This document shows positions 1,410 to 12,383 of a stretch of 12,383 bases of DNA, piece by piece. This stretch comes from a bacterium (GTDB lineage: Bacteria > UBA6262 > WVXT01). The notes under the pieces were generated by a model. It was not told where the DNA came from. It saw only the letters and a list, made by a program, of their open reading frames with translations, and did no database searches. Numbering within the stretch: the first letter of the stretch is position 1; each line of letters starts with the position of its first letter. The stretch covers positions 1 through 12,383 of the forward strand of contig JBHIBS010000043.1 in the NCBI GenBank assembly GCA_046759165.1. Direction: 5' to 3'. A program made the position numbers and the translations under genes.

Positions 1410-1501
1410 AGCAAGCGCGGTGAGGGAATGCATCATAGAAAATTAACATAGTGACAGAGCTAACAGGTGACGCTGTTAACAGTGTCCAGCAGGGTAGAGA
1501 A

Positions 1502-2263
1502 GTGTATCCAGTACTTTTTAAGTTGGGGCCCTTCACTATTTATACATATGGATTAATGGTAGCAATTGGGTGTCTTGTCGGCTTCTTTTATATTCGGGGA
1601 GAGGCAAGGAGAAGAGCTGTCGATACCGATAAGATAATGAGTTTATTTCTCTGGGCCTTAATCTCTGGCTTTGTAGGAGCAAGGCTACTCTATATTTTTG
1701 TAGAATGGGAACGTTTCCTCAATGAACCTTTGAGAACGATTTTGGCCCGAGGAGGGTTCGTTTTCTACGGTGGATTTATTTTGGCTTTCGGAGTTGGCAT
1801 TTGGCAGACCAGAAGGAAAAGTTTAAATATTTGGAAGACTGCGGATATCTTTGCTCCGGGAGTTGCTATAGCCCATGCCATAAGTAGAATAGGCTGCTTT
1901 CTAAATGGTTGTTGTTATGGTGGTCCTACCGATTCCTGGTTGGGGGTTTCCTTTCCGCCAGAGAGTGCGGCGGGTTCTGTAGGACAACCTCTAATTCCGA
2001 TACAATTATTCTCTTCGTTGAATCTATTTATCATCTTCGCCGTTCTAGTCTCCTTAAGACCATACAAAAAATTTGATGGTCAATTATTCTGGCTATATGT
2101 TCTTCTCTATGGAGTGACTCGTTCTATAATTGAAATCTTTCGGGGCGATCCCAGAGGGCATATTTGGGTTTTTTCCACATCGCAACTTATTGGTATGATT
2201 TTTGCCATTTTATCACTCATAATGCTCGGGAAGTTGGGAAGAGAGAAAAAACAGAGATTGTAG
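1502..2263 (+). CDS. lgt: Prolipoprotein diacylglyceryl transferase (Lgt family, Cys-rich subtype)
   Basis: Multi-TM protein with YPVLFKLGPFTIYTYG, GARLLY, FYGG, RIGCFLNGCCYG and RSIIEIFRGD motifs. Start moved to GTG 1502 because the family N-terminus begins there; the ORF track starts at 1451. Confidence 0.85.
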   Translation: MYPVLFKLGPFTIYTYGLMVAIGCLVGFFYIRGEARRRAVDTDKIMSLFLWALISGFVGARLLYIFVEWERFLNEPLRTILARGGFVFYGGFILAFGVGIWQTRRKSLNIWKTADIFAPGVAIAHAISRIGCFLNGCCYGGPTDSWLGVSFPPESAAGSVGQPLIPIQLFSSLNLFIIFAVLVSLRPYKKFDGQLFWLYVLLYGVTRSIIEIFRGDPRGHIWVFSTSQLIGMIFAILSLIMLGKLGREKKQRL

Positions 2264-2270
2264 CTTGTAA

Positions 2271-2448
2271 ATAAGGAACCTTGTGCGGAAGGGGTGACAG
2301 AGAGCGAAGCGAACGCAATTAGGGGCGCCGGTCGCGACGAATAAGGAGCGACGACCGAACGGAGTGAGGGAAAGGCGCGGGCGCGAGTTGGTGAGCGCCC
2401 GGGGTTGAGTTTTCCCGTATTGAGCACAGGCAGATTCACATAAGGAGG
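2271..2448 (+). repeat. ~178-bp intergenic direct repeat, copy 1 (contains core element A1, 2325-2400)
   Basis: Aligns to 3251-3427 with about 14 differences by manual count (~92% identity). Confidence 0.95.
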
Positions 2449-2540
2449 GTCGCTGTTCCGACGAATAAGGAGGAACGAGCCAGCGACGCCTGCGAGTCGG
2501 TGAGCAGGCAGGTCACCGACTGGAGCGAAGCGAAAGGAGG
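2449..2540 (+). repeat. Two-hairpin structured element, B-type copy, ending in the ccdA ribosome-binding site
   Basis: Stems GTCGCT/AGCGAC, GTTCC/GGAAC (loop GACGAATAAGGA) and GCCTGC/GCAGGC (loop GAGTCGGTGA), then GAGCGAAGCGA-AAGGAGG. Homologous to 10949-11032 and 12256-12342. Confidence 0.9.
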
Positions 2541-2544
2541 TAGG

Positions 2545-3243
2545 GTGCTTCAACAAGTTTCACTGGTTATGGCCTTTTTTGCCGGGCTTTTGACGTTTCT
2601 TTCTCCCTGCATCTTACCGCTGATACCTGCTTACGTCTCTTTTGTTACCGGGGTGTCCATTGATGATTTAGTGAGTGGCAGAGGAGAAAAAGGGAAGATT
2701 ACCGCGAGAATTCTTTTAGAAATAGTGCTATTCATTTTTGGCTTCTCTTTAGTTTTCGTCTTGCTGGGAGCTTCAGCTTCCTACTTTGGGAGATTTGTGC
2801 TCTCACATCTGAATATTTTAAGAATTGTCGGTGGAATTTTAGTTATCCTGTTTGGCTTGTATATTGCTGGGATATTTAACATAAGTTTTTTCGGGCATGA
2901 GAGAAAGATTCATTTAAAGATGAAACCCACAAATATTTTTGGTTCTTTTATTGTGGGAATGGTTTTTGCTCTGGGCTGGACTCCCTGCGCCGGCCCTATT
3001 TTGGCATCAATACTTACCTATGCCGGCACCCAAGAGACTGTCAGCAAGGGAATCTTGCTTTTAGGTTCCTATTCTCTTGGATTGGGTATTCCCTTTCTGG
3101 TTTCGGGTCTCGCTGTTAATCTCTTTCTAAGGGGATTCCGTAGAATAAAGAGATACTCAAGGCTGATATCAACAGTAACTGGAGGGTTACTTATTGGATT
3201 TGGAATTCTAATTTTGACCGGCAAATTTCAATTCGTAATGTAA
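2545..3243 (+). CDS. ccdA: Cytochrome c biogenesis / DsbD-family transmembrane electron transporter CcdA
   Basis: Hydrophobic, about 6 TM segments, with two Pro-Cys motifs (FLSPCILPLIP and WTPCAGPIL). GTG 2545 follows AAGGAGG at 2534-2540. Confidence 0.92.
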   Translation: MLQQVSLVMAFFAGLLTFLSPCILPLIPAYVSFVTGVSIDDLVSGRGEKGKITARILLEIVLFIFGFSLVFVLLGASASYFGRFVLSHLNILRIVGGILVILFGLYIAGIFNISFFGHERKIHLKMKPTNIFGSFIVGMVFALGWTPCAGPILASILTYAGTQETVSKGILLLGSYSLGLGIPFLVSGLAVNLFLRGFRRIKRYSRLISTVTGGLLIGFGILILTGKFQFVM

Positions 3244-3250
3244 TTAATAG

Positions 3251-3427
3251 ATAAGAAACCTTTGCGGAAGGGGTGACAGAGAGCGAAGCGAACGCAATCA
3301 GGGGCGCCGGTCGCGACGAGTAAGGAGCGACGACCGAACGGAGTGAGGGAAAGGTGCGGGCGCGAGACGGTGAGCGCCCCGGGTCGAAGTTTCCCCTATT
3401 GAGCACAGGCTGATTCACATAAGGGGG
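3251..3427 (+). repeat. ~177-bp intergenic direct repeat, copy 2 (contains core element A2, 3304-3379), ending in the trxA RBS
   Basis: Near-identical to 2271-2448; ends ...CACATAAGGGGG, 4 nt before the trxA ATG. Confidence 0.95.
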
Positions 3428-3431
3428 AAAA

Positions 3432-3755
3432 ATGGAAATAGTGGTGAATGATGAAAATTTTGAGGATGAAGTTCTGAAATCAGAAGTGCCTGTTTTTGTG
3501 GATTTCTGGGCTGAATGGTGCGCGCCCTGTTTAATGGTTGCCCCAGTTATAGAAGAGATTTCCCAGAAATACGCAGACCGTTTGAAAGTGGGGAGACTTA
3601 ACGTAGACGAAAATCCTCTCACCAGTGCAAAATATGGGATTCGGAGCATTCCCACTTTCATAATCTTCAAGGATGGAAAAGTGCTCGGTCAGACTGTGGG
3701 CGCAATGCCCAGGGAAGCCTTAGAAGCGAAAATTGGAGAAATTCTGAATGAGTGA
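3432..3755 (+). CDS. trxA: Thioredoxin
   Basis: 107 aa with VDFWAEWCAPC active site and cis-Pro loop IRSIPT. Confidence 0.95.
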   Translation: MEIVVNDENFEDEVLKSEVPVFVDFWAEWCAPCLMVAPVIEEISQKYADRLKVGRLNVDENPLTSAKYGIRSIPTFIIFKDGKVLGQTVGAMPREALEAKIGEILNE

Positions 3756-4692
3756 GTATGATGTTATTGTGATTGGCGGTGGACCGGCAGGTTTGACTGC
3801 AGGTCTCTATACAGCCCGCTCGAAAGTGAGAACTTTGCTTCTGGAAAAGGTTGCTCCCGGAGGCCAGGCAGCAGTTGCTACGACAATAGAGAACTATCCA
3901 GGATTTCCGGAAGGGATTGAGGGATTTGAGTTGATGCAGAGGACCAGGAAGCAAGCTGAGAAATATGGACTGGAGATTAAAAGTAAGGAAGTTGTAAAGG
4001 TTAAGGTCTCTTCAAAAGATGAGCAGTCCAAAGGGAAACTGGAGAAAGTAGTTAACACAGAGCAAGAGGAGTACAAGACTGTAGCTTTAATTGTGGCTAC
4101 AGGGACAAGGCCGAGGAAATTGGGAGTCCCGGGTGAAGAGAGATTGATTGGTCGAGGGGTATCCTATTGCGCCACATGTGACGGACCCCTGTTTAAGAAT
4201 CGGAAAGTTGTTGTAGTGGGTGGCGGAGATACTGCAGTAGAAGAGGCACTATTTCTATCTAGGTTTGCAGAGAAGACCACTTTAATTCATCGCCGAGACA
4301 AGCTGCGGGCGACTAAAATTATCCAGGAGAGAGCGATTTCCAATCCAAAATTGGAATTTCTCTGGAAGTCAGTAGTGACTGAAATTTTTGGAGAAACTGA
4401 AGTGGAAGGTGTTAAAGTAAGAAATCTGGAAACGGGAAAAGATTTAACATTAGAAGCAAAGGGGGTTTTTGTGTACATAGGTACCCTCCCTAACACCGGG
4501 TTCCTGAAGGGTATTGTAGAGATGGACGAGAAAGGATTTATTATTACAGACGGAAATATGGAAACTTCAGTTAAAGGAATTTATGCTTGCGGAGATGTAA
4601 GGAAAAAAATATTGAGGCAGATAGTGACTGCCTGTGGTGATGGCGCAACCGCGGGTTTTGCTGCTGAACAGTATGTTGGGAAGTGGAAATAG
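3748..4692 (+). CDS. trxB: Thioredoxin reductase (NADPH, FAD)
   Basis: GGGPAG FAD motif, IENYPGF, SYCATCDG redox disulfide, GGGDTAVEEA and HRR NADPH motifs; overlaps the trxA stop. Confidence 0.97.
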   Translation: MSEYDVIVIGGGPAGLTAGLYTARSKVRTLLLEKVAPGGQAAVATTIENYPGFPEGIEGFELMQRTRKQAEKYGLEIKSKEVVKVKVSSKDEQSKGKLEKVVNTEQEEYKTVALIVATGTRPRKLGVPGEERLIGRGVSYCATCDGPLFKNRKVVVVGGGDTAVEEALFLSRFAEKTTLIHRRDKLRATKIIQERAISNPKLEFLWKSVVTEIFGETEVEGVKVRNLETGKDLTLEAKGVFVYIGTLPNTGFLKGIVEMDEKGFIITDGNMETSVKGIYACGDVRKKILRQIVTACGDGATAGFAAEQYVGKWK

Positions 4693-7428: not shown

Positions 7429-7576
7429 GGATTTGCTTCGCTCGCTGACAATTTTTTGCTCTTCGAGCACCGCCAAAAATCTCAGGAGTTTACCGAAAGG
7501 GCAAGTCGCTCAGTTTCGGCTAAACTCTTTTCTTCGATTTTTGGGTAAAAATTCTAATGCTCGCTACACCCAATCC
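7429..7576. repeat. Long nested imperfect palindrome (MITE/REP-like structured spacer)
   Basis: Concentric arms: GGATT/AATCC (7429-7433/7572-7576), AATTTTT/AAAAATT (7450-7456/7547-7553), CCAAAAATC/GATTTTTGG (7473-7481/7536-7544), GAGTTTA/TAAACTC (7486-7492/7521-7527), CCGAAA/TTTCGG (7493-7498/7514-7519). Confidence 0.7.
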
Positions 7577-7676
7577 CCTTGCATTATGGGAATATGTTGT
7601 CCTCGTTTTTTGGTCAAAATTCCAATAGTTCTTCATAAGTTATCTTTTAATAAGGTAATTGACAGAGGAATCAATT

Positions 7677-10512: not shown

Positions 10513-10542
10513 TTGACAAAAAAGTATTGATTTTGGTATCAT
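10513..10542 (+). promoter_or_regulatory. Sigma70-type promoter with extended -10
   Basis: Perfect TTGACA (10513-10518), 18-nt spacer, TGn-TATCAT (10537-10542), AT-rich upstream. Confidence 0.7.
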
Positions 10543-10863: not shown

Positions 10864-11032
10864 AGGGGCGCCGGTCGCGACGAATAAGGAGCGACGACCG
10901 AGCGGAGCGAGGGAAAGCTGCGGGCGCGAGACGGTGAGCGGCCCGGAGCGCTGTTCCGACGAATAAGGAGGAACGCGTCACGGACACGTGCGAGTCGGTG
11001 AGCAGGCAGGCCGCCGACTGAAGCGAAAGGAG
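10864..11032 (+). repeat. Adjacent A-type (10868-10944) and B-type (10949-11032) copies of the two-hairpin element, ending in the amidohydrolase RBS
   Basis: Loop GACGAATAAGGA at 10879-10890 and 10958-10969, GAGACGGTGA at 10928-10937, GAGTCGGTGA at 10992-11001; ends GCGAAAGGAG. Confidence 0.92.
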
Positions 11033-11041
11033 ATGAAAAAA

Positions 11042-11785
11042 ATGAAGATAGTCGACATTCATTTGCATTTGGGACCATGCAAGGTGTTTGATTTAGATAC
11101 TTCGGAAGAGGCGTTGATGGGCACGATAGAAAAGAATAAAGTTGATGCTGGGCTTGTTCAACCTTATCCAGGCACACCGGATGTCAAGAAAACCCACAAT
11201 GATATAGCTAAACTTGTGAAGAAGTACCCTAAGAAGATTTTTGGACTTGTAAATCTCAATCCCCATCAGGAAGAAAAAGAATATAATGCAGAGGTTGATA
11301 GACTCATAAGAGATGAAGGTTTCGTTGGTATAAAACTGCACACTATTGGTCATGCGATAAGTCCTCTGGCTACCGATGCAAAGAAGGTCTTTGAAGCAGC
11401 GAAAAGGCATAAAGTTCCGTTAATGATTCATACTGGAGCGGGAATTCCATTTGCTCTGCCTTCACTTGTTATACCTATGGCACAGGCTTATCCGGATCTC
11501 CCAATAATCCTTTATCATTCTGGTATGGCACATATATATTCAACTGAAGCTTACATTGCTGCAAAACTTTGCAAGAATATCTATTTAGAGGGTTCTTGGA
11601 TTTCTATTAATGAGAAAATCTGGTTTGTAAGCGACCTCGGGTCCGAGAGAATACTTTTGGGAACCGACTTGCCAGAGAATACGGCAGTGGAAATCTTCCA
11701 GTATAAATCTATGAACCTTAGCGATAACGACCTAGCAAATGTTTTGGGTGAGAATGCTATAAGGCTCTTCAACCTTAAGATATAA
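11042..11785 (+). CDS. Amidohydrolase-2 family TIM-barrel metallohydrolase
   Basis: IVDIHLH (HxH), GIKLH, IHTG, HSG and GTDLP. ATG 11042 is 9 nt after AAGGAG; ATG 11033 is an alternative. Confidence 0.88.
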   Translation: MKIVDIHLHLGPCKVFDLDTSEEALMGTIEKNKVDAGLVQPYPGTPDVKKTHNDIAKLVKKYPKKIFGLVNLNPHQEEKEYNAEVDRLIRDEGFVGIKLHTIGHAISPLATDAKKVFEAAKRHKVPLMIHTGAGIPFALPSLVIPMAQAYPDLPIILYHSGMAHIYSTEAYIAAKLCKNIYLEGSWISINEKIWFVSDLGSERILLGTDLPENTAVEIFQYKSMNLSDNDLANVLGENAIRLFNLKI

Positions 11786-12226: not shown

Positions 12227-12255
12227 AAAATTTAGATTTTATTACAGAAAGGAGG

Positions 12256-12383
12256 GTCGCCGTCGCGACGAGTAAGGAGCGACAAGTCTGGCGACGGGTT
12301 CGAGATGGTGAGAACCCCGGCCGGATTGAGCGAAGCGAAAGGGTCGCCGTCGCGACGAGTAAGGAGCGACAAGTCTGGCGACG
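12256..12383 (+). repeat. Tandem copies (87-bp period) of the two-hairpin element; second copy truncated by the window end
   Basis: 12253-12296 is identical to 12340-12383. Unit: GTCGCC[GTCGC-GACGAGTAAGGA-GCGAC]aagtct-GGCGAC, then GGGTTC-GAGATGGTGA-GAACCC, then GAGCGAAGCGA. Confidence 0.93.

Follow-up and report, generated by a model that had tools for sequence, protein, structure and literature searches.

With a probability of about 0.5, the B copy, the repeat unit directly upstream of ccdA, belongs to a group of modular, GC-rich, structured repeats that behave as non-autonomous mobile DNA and are copied in and out at Shine-Dalgarno (SD) sequences, guided by homology. In the genome G000 and its relatives, these repeats would constitute an unusual operon-compatible mobile element, one that supplies a working ribosome-binding site (RBS), or keeps one, at the RBS sites that it occupies. 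G000 is a draft genome of 165 contigs (1.885 Mb, 41.9% G+C, 92% complete), and the window, i.e., the whole stretch of DNA analyzed here, is its entire contig C43 with 12,383 nucleotides. The public runs that best match G000 are, by label, hydrothermal vent metagenomes. Pfam assignments of the genes in the window agree with the gene names given in the first-pass annotation. The longest ccdA open reading frame begins within the B unit, an example of how such repeats mislead the calling of start codons.

Three subtypes of the element occur in the window: A, with an extra segment inside the helix P1; B; and C, arranged as an 87-nt tandem array. The A copies sit in a larger composite, whose L arm (..ATAAGGAACCTTGTGCGGAAGGGG) base-pairs with its R arm (..TTTCCCCTATTGAGCACAGGCTGATTCACATAAGGAGG); at some loci, the same arms close a plain hairpin without a core. 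The L arm of the lgt-ccdA spacer opens with the decayed SD-like sequence ATAAGGAAC; in this arm, CCTTGTGC and GGGG (2291-2294) have GCACAGG and CCC, respectively, as their pairing partners in the R arm. The adjoining "mini" module includes GAGCGAAGCGAA, which is common to the tails of B and C, and the A-type core of this composite is built from P1, P2 with the loop GACGAATAAGGA, the extra internal segment, and P3 with the loop GAGTTGGTGA. Self-comparison of the window reveals a 173-nt repeat (2276-2448 and 3255-3427, 91% identity). The second composite, in the ccdA-trxA spacer, comprises an L arm, the mini module, an A core (3301-3383), and an R arm with the end TAAGGGGG, followed by the ATG at 3432. 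In the B core, P1 is formed by 2449-2454 and 2482-2487, P2 by 2455-2459 and 2472-2476 (loop 2460-2471, with AAGGAGG at 2467-2473), and P3 by 2489-2493 and 2504-2508 (loop 2494-2503). The MFE fold uses a competing helix between 2495-2503 and 2513-2521; compensating changes are absent among the B copies by eye, and this B-specific helix is therefore not taken as a pseudoknot.

All of the sequence details described in the first-pass annotation can be read directly from the letters. The B copy (2449-2533) is bracketed by AAGGAGG at 2442-2448 and 2534-2540, and another AAGGAGG (12249-12255) is found immediately 5′ of the copy at 12256. Near 10949, ..CCCGGAG precedes a B copy whose last bases are ..GAAGCGAAAGGAG, 9 nt upstream of the amidohydrolase ATG at 11042. 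The A copies begin in AGGGG, as seen at 2321, 3300, and 10864, and the trxA spacer, which has no B copy, reads ...GATTCACATAAGGGGGAAAA-ATG(3432). The proposal that ..GATTCACATAAGGRGG in this spacer is the paralogous unoccupied allele of the B site does not hold: this 16-mer is not a unique allele but closes another repeated module, the R arm, at its 3′ end, and the module end has ∼18 copies in the genome, mostly directly 5′ of start codons. AAGGAGG occurs 9 times in the window, compared to 3.67 ± 1.9 times in shuffled sequences (2 of 200 shuffles reach 9), and 5 of the 9 lie within or at the edge of elements.

Table 1. Features of the window with their positions (CM, structure-based covariance model)
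Feature	Positions	Strand	Evidence or remark
LGT gene	1451-2263		Pfam
L arm of composite, lgt-ccdA spacer	2270-2294	+	Same arm at at least 10 loci
Mini module TGACAGAGAGCGAAGCGAACGCAATTA	2295-2321	+	Recurs in C1, C33, C35, C40, and at window positions 3274-3300
A-type core	2322-2404	+	CM match 2314-2417, E 3.2e-8
R arm, end GATTCACATAAGGAGG	2405-2448	+	AAGGAGG 2442-2448 is the left repeat copy bracketing B
B-type core	2449-2521	+	CM match 2438-2526, E 1.6e-15; covariation
B tail GGAGCGAAGCGAAAGGAGG	2522-2540	+	Right AAGGAGG 2534-2540 is the ccdA SD (GTG 2545)
DsbD_TM/CcdA gene	2545-3243		GTG start; Pfam
Paralogous composite without B, ccdA-trxA spacer	3246-3427	+	Window self-comparison, relatives' spacers
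Thioredoxin (trxA) gene	3432-3755		ATG at 3432; Pfam
Pyridine-nucleotide disulfide oxidoreductase gene	3748-4692		Pfam
A-type core, first unit of A+B array, amidohydrolase 5′ UTR	10864-10948	+	CM match
B-type unit fused to A core	10944-11032	+	Tail ..GAAGCGAAAGGAG is the SD for ATG 11042
Amidohydro_2 protein gene	Start ATG 11042		Pfam
AAGGAGG directly 5′ of C-type array	12249-12255	+	
C-type tandem units, 87-nt period	12256-12383	+	Contig end cuts second unit; CM match

Each unit shows a core of three helices, with P1 enclosing P2 (5 bp, with GACGARTAAGGA as its 12-nt loop), and with P3, a stem with the loop GAGNNGGTGA. The tail of the unit contains GCGAA repeats and ends in AAGGAGG. The alignment used for covariation comprises 52 sequences, namely, 2 window copies and 50 of 52 dissimilar loci from several phyla; one C-type copy identical to that of the window and one long A-type copy were excluded. 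The 17 pairs of P1 to P3 are 89.6% paired in this alignment, and changes on both sides are found for 15 pairs (255 cells). None of 500 shuffles reaches the covariation score, and slid controls are at most 48.4% paired. The invariance of the loops in the alignment is by construction since the loops served as the search pattern; the stems were unconstrained. Rfam release 15 gives no match at an E value of ≤1 in the window, leaves the motif unmatched in 8 loci of other phyla, and matches only tRNA and RNase P RNA in 16 further G000 loci. As the three-helix core is widespread and is without an Rfam family, it is a candidate new structured nucleic acid motif. Kink-turn, hammerhead, and other ribozyme cores, compared with the loops by eye, did not fit. 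Literature searches with the loop sequence match unrelated primers only, and keyword searches, which covered abstracts and excerpts, lead to reviews of other repeats in which the element is undescribed.

An nhmmer search of G000 yields 47 matches, or 44 after iteration, and the CM yields 39, corresponding to 39 merged loci. The repeats break assemblies: ∼17 contig ends of G000 lie inside copies by our own reading of the contexts, and the true copy number of this genome is therefore higher. All eight same-family genomes contain CM matches (3 to 39 per genome), and within a single genus, the copy number ranges from 10 to 39. Both same-order genomes are without CM matches; elsewhere, the model finds one marginal match in a same-class genome and two matches in one unrelated genome. 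A search of the species collection with the exact two-loop pattern gives at least 116 loci; viral contigs give no match. Among the 80 matches listed, most belong to Nitrospira/Nitrospirota, and others belong to deltaproteobacterial lineages, Omnitrophota, Planctomycetia, Elusimicrobia/Endomicrobia, a Gaiellales, and an alphaproteobacterium. The listed "Clostridia" MAGs carry the same B, C, and A types and are evidently close kin of G000. Between genera, C units are 98 to 100% identical and B units are 93 to 97% identical, compared to only 74 to 91% for the adjoining coding sequences; this near-identity is a sign that the units have probably spread recently.

The placement of the elements goes beyond chance. 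The fixed orientation proposed in the first-pass annotation is found at 37 of 39 loci of G000, where the element is on the same strand as the flanking open reading frames, as called by our own crude codon-usage caller. The claim that the RBS is regenerated at the 3′ end applies to all 10 assessable terminal ..GCGAAAGG tails, which close in AGGAG(G) and are followed by a start codon within 4 to 10 nt; otherwise, six such tails are followed by another unit and one by a contig end. By our own reading of the contexts, 19 to 20 of 31 assessable loci end in an SD and a start codon. The remaining loci are directly 5′ of a tRNA or RNase P RNA gene (5 loci, neighbors agreed by Rfam), otherwise placed (6 loci), or at contig ends (8 loci). 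The family as a whole thus needs no RBS, since some cores adjoin tRNA and RNase P RNA genes. The genes downstream are unrelated to each other and include DsbD_TM (CcdA), thioredoxin, Amidohydro_2, Memo, SnoaL, ScpA, S15, RecO, CdhD, 2-Hacid_dh, and PSP1. A consensus scan finds no promoter inside the element; the A+B array of the amidohydrolase gene lies ∼330 nt downstream of a promoter-like TTGACA-18-TATCAT (10513-10542).

The same-family genomes G001 and G003 to G008 are syntenic here and were used for comparison of orthologous spacers. The first-pass annotation had expected filled and empty alleles, the latter with a single SD, and such alleles are found at the lgt-ccdA, SnoaL-like, and amidohydrolase sites. 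The lgt-ccdA spacer, which holds a 272-nt composite in G000, is empty in seven of seven relatives, leaving a short plain spacer with one SD, for example, TAG-TCGAGGAGGCATT-GTG. One contig of run X4 and two of run X5, both other metagenome runs, skip 265 to 268 nt at this site. The ccdA-trxA spacer, occupied by a composite without B in G000, is empty in five relatives, partly filled in G007, and filled without a core in G008. At the SnoaL-like gene, G000 contains a solo B copy (..CACAAGGAGG-B-..AGGAGGTGAAACATG), and two of the three informative relatives are empty (G001, ..AATAAGGAGGTAAAACATG; G006, ..AACAAGGAGATGAAACATG), with G008 carrying a diverged variant. Exactly one SD is present in these empty relatives, compared to two around the element in G000. 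The A+B array at the amidohydrolase gene has empty counterparts in three of five relatives, G003, G006, and G008 (..AAAAAAAGGAGGGGAAAATAATG); other variants fill the site in G001 (B-like) and G004 (C-like), and a decayed left copy, CAAGAGGG, is common to G000 and G001.

Arm composites show the same kind of distribution, with empty sites in four of five relatives at scpA and in three of three informative relatives at recO. At the 2-hydroxyacid dehydrogenase (2-Hacid_dh) gene, CTGATTCAC is found on both sides of the composite in G000, and the empty site of G008 has a single ..TTGATTCACATAAGGAGG. The PSP1 site departs from this simple pattern, as it is plainly empty in no relative; there, hairpin repeats of other GC-rich kinds precede the same native SD in each of them. 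Two contig joints (3304 to 3388 and 2540 to 10948) were rejected; their sides measure only 23 to 29 nt, and they probably stem from other repeat copies. Sequence comparison thus shows the presence and absence of elements in register with the SD as apparent gain and loss, where each apparent insertion could, in this contig-level comparison, instead be a loss in the relatives; the contigs show no excised junction or circle directly. The first reading of gain and loss at the RBS, with a fixed orientation and a regenerated SD, is largely borne out. For the RBS as a target, the sense orientation and the SD-registered presence and absence stand, whereas targeting itself would be an interpretation of this pattern, and copies are also found beside genes for tRNA or RNase P RNA instead of an RBS.

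The junctions give indications of how the elements may move. The right repeat copy is constant (..GCGAAAGGAG), and the left copy resembles the local sequence. The flanking direct repeat is always SD-like and, in the composites, extends from ATA up to CTGATTCAC. B-B junctions share AGGAGG, and C-C junctions (..GCGAAAGG joined to GTCGCC) share only AAGG. Because of this short C-C overlap and the variable length, the flanking repeat is not a fixed-length target site duplication. Copies in other phyla carry (R)AGG(G) before P1 without an SD context, and the left duplicate is therefore partly intrinsic. Of the duplicated flank described at first, the direct repeat is present, but its left copy belongs in part to the element, and its length ranges from AAGG to AAGGAGGG. 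Tandem arrays are found in other phyla too, e.g., a 61-nt array in an alphaproteobacterial MAG. The third AAGGAG(G) of the unit is that of the P2 loop, which is exactly where truncated forms stop. The S15 leaders of G003, G006, and G008 consist of the hairpin and GACGAATAAGGAGG alone, serving as the SD, and the C94 copy is truncated at TAAGGAGG. At two tRNA genes, the 5′ part of the tRNA and the upstream spacer are repeated on both sides of the core, with GGG or CAAG at the joint, which looks like microhomology-mediated tandem duplication.

From these flanks, we infer homology-guided copy-in/copy-out as the most likely mechanism. The unit would be bounded by the same short sequence as the target, and template switching or slippage, or simple recombination between an element end and an SD, would lead to insertion, tandem multiplication, and precise deletion. 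Units with the tail ..GCGAAAGGAGG (B and C types) are found 3′ of AAGG or AAGGAGG, with their own tail as the new SD. The hairpin-arm composite (L arm, core, and R arm) lies just 5′ of the SD, with the end ..GATTCACATAAGGAGG. Since both subtypes are in sense orientation and in register, the SD remains 4 to 10 nt from the start codon, and the operon would continue to work. A transposase making a fixed staggered cut appears to account for the flanks less well than copying and deletion guided by an SD-like sequence. Against homology-guided copying, 7 bases of homology are short for recombination. In addition, a core conserved across phyla points to some conserved partner, whether protein or RNA function, and the homology-copying model names none.

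A more tentative reading takes the core as a cross-phylum structured selfish element with a putative conserved partner and "RBS homing" as a feature of one vent lineage. The SD link is limited to the lineage of G000 because the orientation relative to genes is mixed in other phyla. At high-GC loci of other phyla, crude gene calls give 16 same/same, 24 opposite/opposite, 13 convergent, and 6 divergent arrangements. Such a mixture in high-GC phyla would point to selfish DNA or an independent small gene; a cis-acting leader would not be expected to show it. RBS homing, if true, is a site- and orientation-specific integration at the SD that replaces the SD with the element's own, so that the element can spread via operons and from genus to genus with hardly any burden on the host. 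If SD homing is real, mobile DNA colonizes the constrained intergenic bases of operons without polar effects, and RBS regions evolve via cassette exchange, not point mutation.

It is unlikely that the units owe their movement to a dedicated enzyme, as non-autonomous partners of an HUH/Y1 single-strand (IS200/IS605- or RAYT-like) system or another site-specific recombinase. The IS200/IS605 family of single-strand transposition is known for orientation-specific insertion beside a short target and for precise excision. Here, insertion would take place in one orientation 3′ of AAGG(AGG), with the right end of the element equal to the target, and precise excision would occur without a true duplication. 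The variable, native-looking left flank and the constant right copy resemble those of peel-and-paste elements, the target is asymmetric and the orientation toward it strict, the loops of the hairpins are conserved, and the distribution across phyla is patchy. The one orientation and the precise empty sites match the IS200/IS605-type pattern, but microhomology copying predicts the same pattern. Two homologues of the REP-associated tyrosine transposase (RAYT) are found in G000 (NF047646, 85.8 and 80.1 bits; cutoff, 80). The repeat on the flanks of these genes, however, is of another kind (AAAAAGGGGTCAGAGTCATTTTT type, 23 copies) and not the core. In a set of 41 genomes, RAYT members occur in 27 and cores in 11, and the two distributions do not match up; G006 (24 cores) and G007 (10 cores) yield no RAYT match. 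A role of RAYT as the cognate mobilizer is not supported on these grounds. The two hairpins of a unit are also unlike each other, and no neighboring protein recurs at 116 loci of other phyla, where clustering returns only orthologous housekeeping genes and translated repeat DNA. In the 92%-complete draft of G000, no reverse transcriptase and no autonomous insertion sequence with the same ends were seen. As for MITE-type features, terminal inverted repeats are found in the arm composite (CCTGTGC...GCACAGG and GGGG...CCCC), B and C units have internal hairpins only, and a fixed-length, copy-specific target duplication was rejected, as the flank is always SD-like and variable in length.

Also doubtful is a functional RNA leader acting in cis, be it a standby or loading site for ribosomes, a 5′ stabilizer, or, in the arm composite, an anti-SD switch. 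The sense bias at RBSs would then arise from selection, not targeting, and the elements would have spread by ordinary duplication and recombination. The covariation fits a single-strand structure on the given strand, with G-U pairs tolerated, the amidohydrolase array lies in a 5′ UTR downstream of the promoter-like site, and the units are more conserved than the adjoining genes. In the lineage of G000, moreover, the copies occupy likely transcribed positions in sense orientation. Sister-genome orthologues, however, manage without the element, the copy number in the family varies from 3 to 39, the downstream genes have no function in common, and the motif is found in either orientation in other phyla. 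A riboswitch or cis-regulatory leader of a consistent gene set was rejected, as the structure is conserved but the genes are unrelated and orthologues occur without the element. AAGGAG(G) in the loops and tail provides up to three SD-like sites per unit, but variants replace the GGA of the P2 loop by pairing bases (GATGAATAAATC); the SD-likeness of this loop is thus not required and looks like a by-product. For the trxA leader, TTTCCCCT of the R arm can pair with the SD AAGGGGGAA in the MFE fold, and GGGG of the L arm competes for it, but the whole leader folds no better than shuffled sequences (z, −0.09). An anti-SD switch in the arm composite, with TTTCCCCT pairing with either the GGGG of the L arm or the SD, is possible, for a predicted fold no stabler than shuffles. 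The folding energies predicted for the B unit (z, −3.08), its reverse strand (z, −3.43), and the C unit (z, −2.01) do not by themselves choose the strand. A coincidence of ordinary REP-like hairpins with ordinary SD sequences is hardly credible: AGGAGG is common in G000 (1703 on both strands), and other kinds of intergenic GC-rich hairpins are abundant in the relatives, but the tail and SD are found at 10 of 10 array ends, the direct repeats line up exactly with the one SD that the empty sites have (SnoaL and amidohydrolase), and one orientation prevails at 37 of 39 loci.

Among known systems, STAB-SD of the Bacillus cryIIIA gene is an SD-like sequence upstream of the real RBS, which acts via the ribosome as a 5′ mRNA stabilizer. 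The elements share the SD-like sequence upstream of the real RBS, but STAB-SD is a single site, not a folded repeat family, and is not known to be mobile. REP/REPIN-RAYT systems are similar in their short GC-rich hairpins with many copies, and RAYT homologues occur in G000; in contrast, the elements show no co-occurrence with RAYT, whose genes are flanked by another repeat, and loops conserved across phyla are unusual for REPs. The pneumococcal BOX elements are modular (boxA, boxB, and boxC) and variable in length, are located in transcribed regions, and form predicted RNA stem-loops (PMC3049150). These features are shared, but as far as the excerpted account goes, BOX has terminal inverted repeats and IS-linked target duplications and no tie to the RBS, and good SDs are lacking according to those authors (PMC3049150).

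The Neisseria REP2 and Borrelia IR repeats lie directly upstream of genes, bring the RBS with them, and contain two internal stem-loops, in which they resemble the elements described here (PMC3184786, in part). With REP2, a promoter and the ATG come along as well, and the genes so marked form a coregulated set (PMC3184786, in part); the elements of G000 show no promoter in the consensus scan, use the native start codon, precede unrelated genes, and are inserted or deleted in register with the SD. MIRUs are units of 40 to 100 bp with ∼40 to 50 copies per genome, which are intercistronic in operons, cotranscribed, and often in tandem, and transposition was suggested by the existence of both filled and empty sites and by short direct repeats (PMC3184786, in part). 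The elements likewise occupy operon spacers in sense orientation and have both filled and empty sites. MIRUs contain small open reading frames, which overlap stop and start codons (PMC3184786, in part); the elements here have the SD at their end, use the SD as the flanking repeat, and possess a three-helix core common to distant phyla. MIRU, Neisseria REP2/Borrelia IR, and BOX are the closest known systems, and none of them, as portrayed in the excerpts of these sources, combines an SD flank, a cross-phylum core, and near-identity between genera. The elements are interspersed intergenic repeats, and there is a fair chance that their core represents a new class of structured mobile element.

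The longest open reading frame of ccdA, the DsbD_TM/CcdA gene downstream of the B-type core, begins at GTG 2500, a position within the B unit (window 2500-2544). Orthologues place the true start at GTG 2545 and not at 2500; automatic annotation would therefore make ccdA too long. Around the same unit (window 2440-2541), one contig in each of the two runs that match the window best joins position 2541 back to 2440, a return of 102 nt. This joint could reflect a further B unit in tandem here, another locus or a circle junction, all of which look alike on contigs. Contig depth also rises about tenfold in 4/4 runs across window 7435-7600, and contigs of the runs show joints of 7491 to 7529 and 7589 to 7422 within or near this stretch. 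This is a putative further repeated or variable segment, close to where the 514-aa ORF begins.

Elsewhere in the draft genome G000, 5' fragments of tRNAs precede core copies at C85:1-270 together with the end of C29 (17061-17201), and at C27:20036-20318. The Gly-like piece is cut within the T stem and the Glu(TTC)-like piece immediately 3' of the anticodon loop. At both loci the upstream spacer and the tRNA start recur 3' of the core, an arrangement that looks like microhomology-mediated tandem duplication. The Glu-like arrangement is also present in one relative (locus L067). The RNase P RNA gene next to the A-type copy at locus L148 matches Rfam RF00010 with 174 bits.

The two D-type cores share GCGGATTAGGGAGTTTG upstream and GGACAGAGA..GGTGGACATTTGG..CGCCAGAGG downstream, with the C25 copy of the region located 5' of an ORF starting MALIVQKYGG. 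No Rfam family matched this GC-rich region, which may represent a separate unannotated RNA.

In the relatives G001, G003, G004, G006 and G008, several further GC-rich hairpin families occupy the same spacers, for example CCGAT-loop-ATCGG hairpins, GGAGTAGCGAAAC..GTTTCGC and GCAGACTGAAGTCTGC. These families substitute for each other from species to species and are found swapped even into helix P2 or P3 of the core.

Features recorded outside the window (contigs are those of G000)
Feature	Location	Loci
D-type cores (two) within a longer conserved GC-rich region	C25:4697-5022; C5:86-468	
A-type copy with R-arm-like tail, immediately 5' of RNase P RNA gene	C39:3788-4123	L148
R-arm ends immediately 5' of tRNA genes	C22:~13800; C54:~102	
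Other hairpin repeat families in relatives		L151-L155, L163-L170, L184-L195
REP-associated tyrosine transposase (RAYT) homologues (two; 229 and 223 aa)	C4:49731-50482; C40:~2620-3290	L171, L172

An A-run/GGGGTCAGAGTCA/T-run repeat, present 23 times in the G000 genome, lies on both sides of the C4 RAYT homologue, its copies there being inverted relative to each other. The C40 homologue has a related GGGGACAGGCTAC-type repeat upstream and lies between putative aspartate-semialdehyde-dehydrogenase-like and isopropylmalate-dehydrogenase-like ORFs, one on each side and named by eye.
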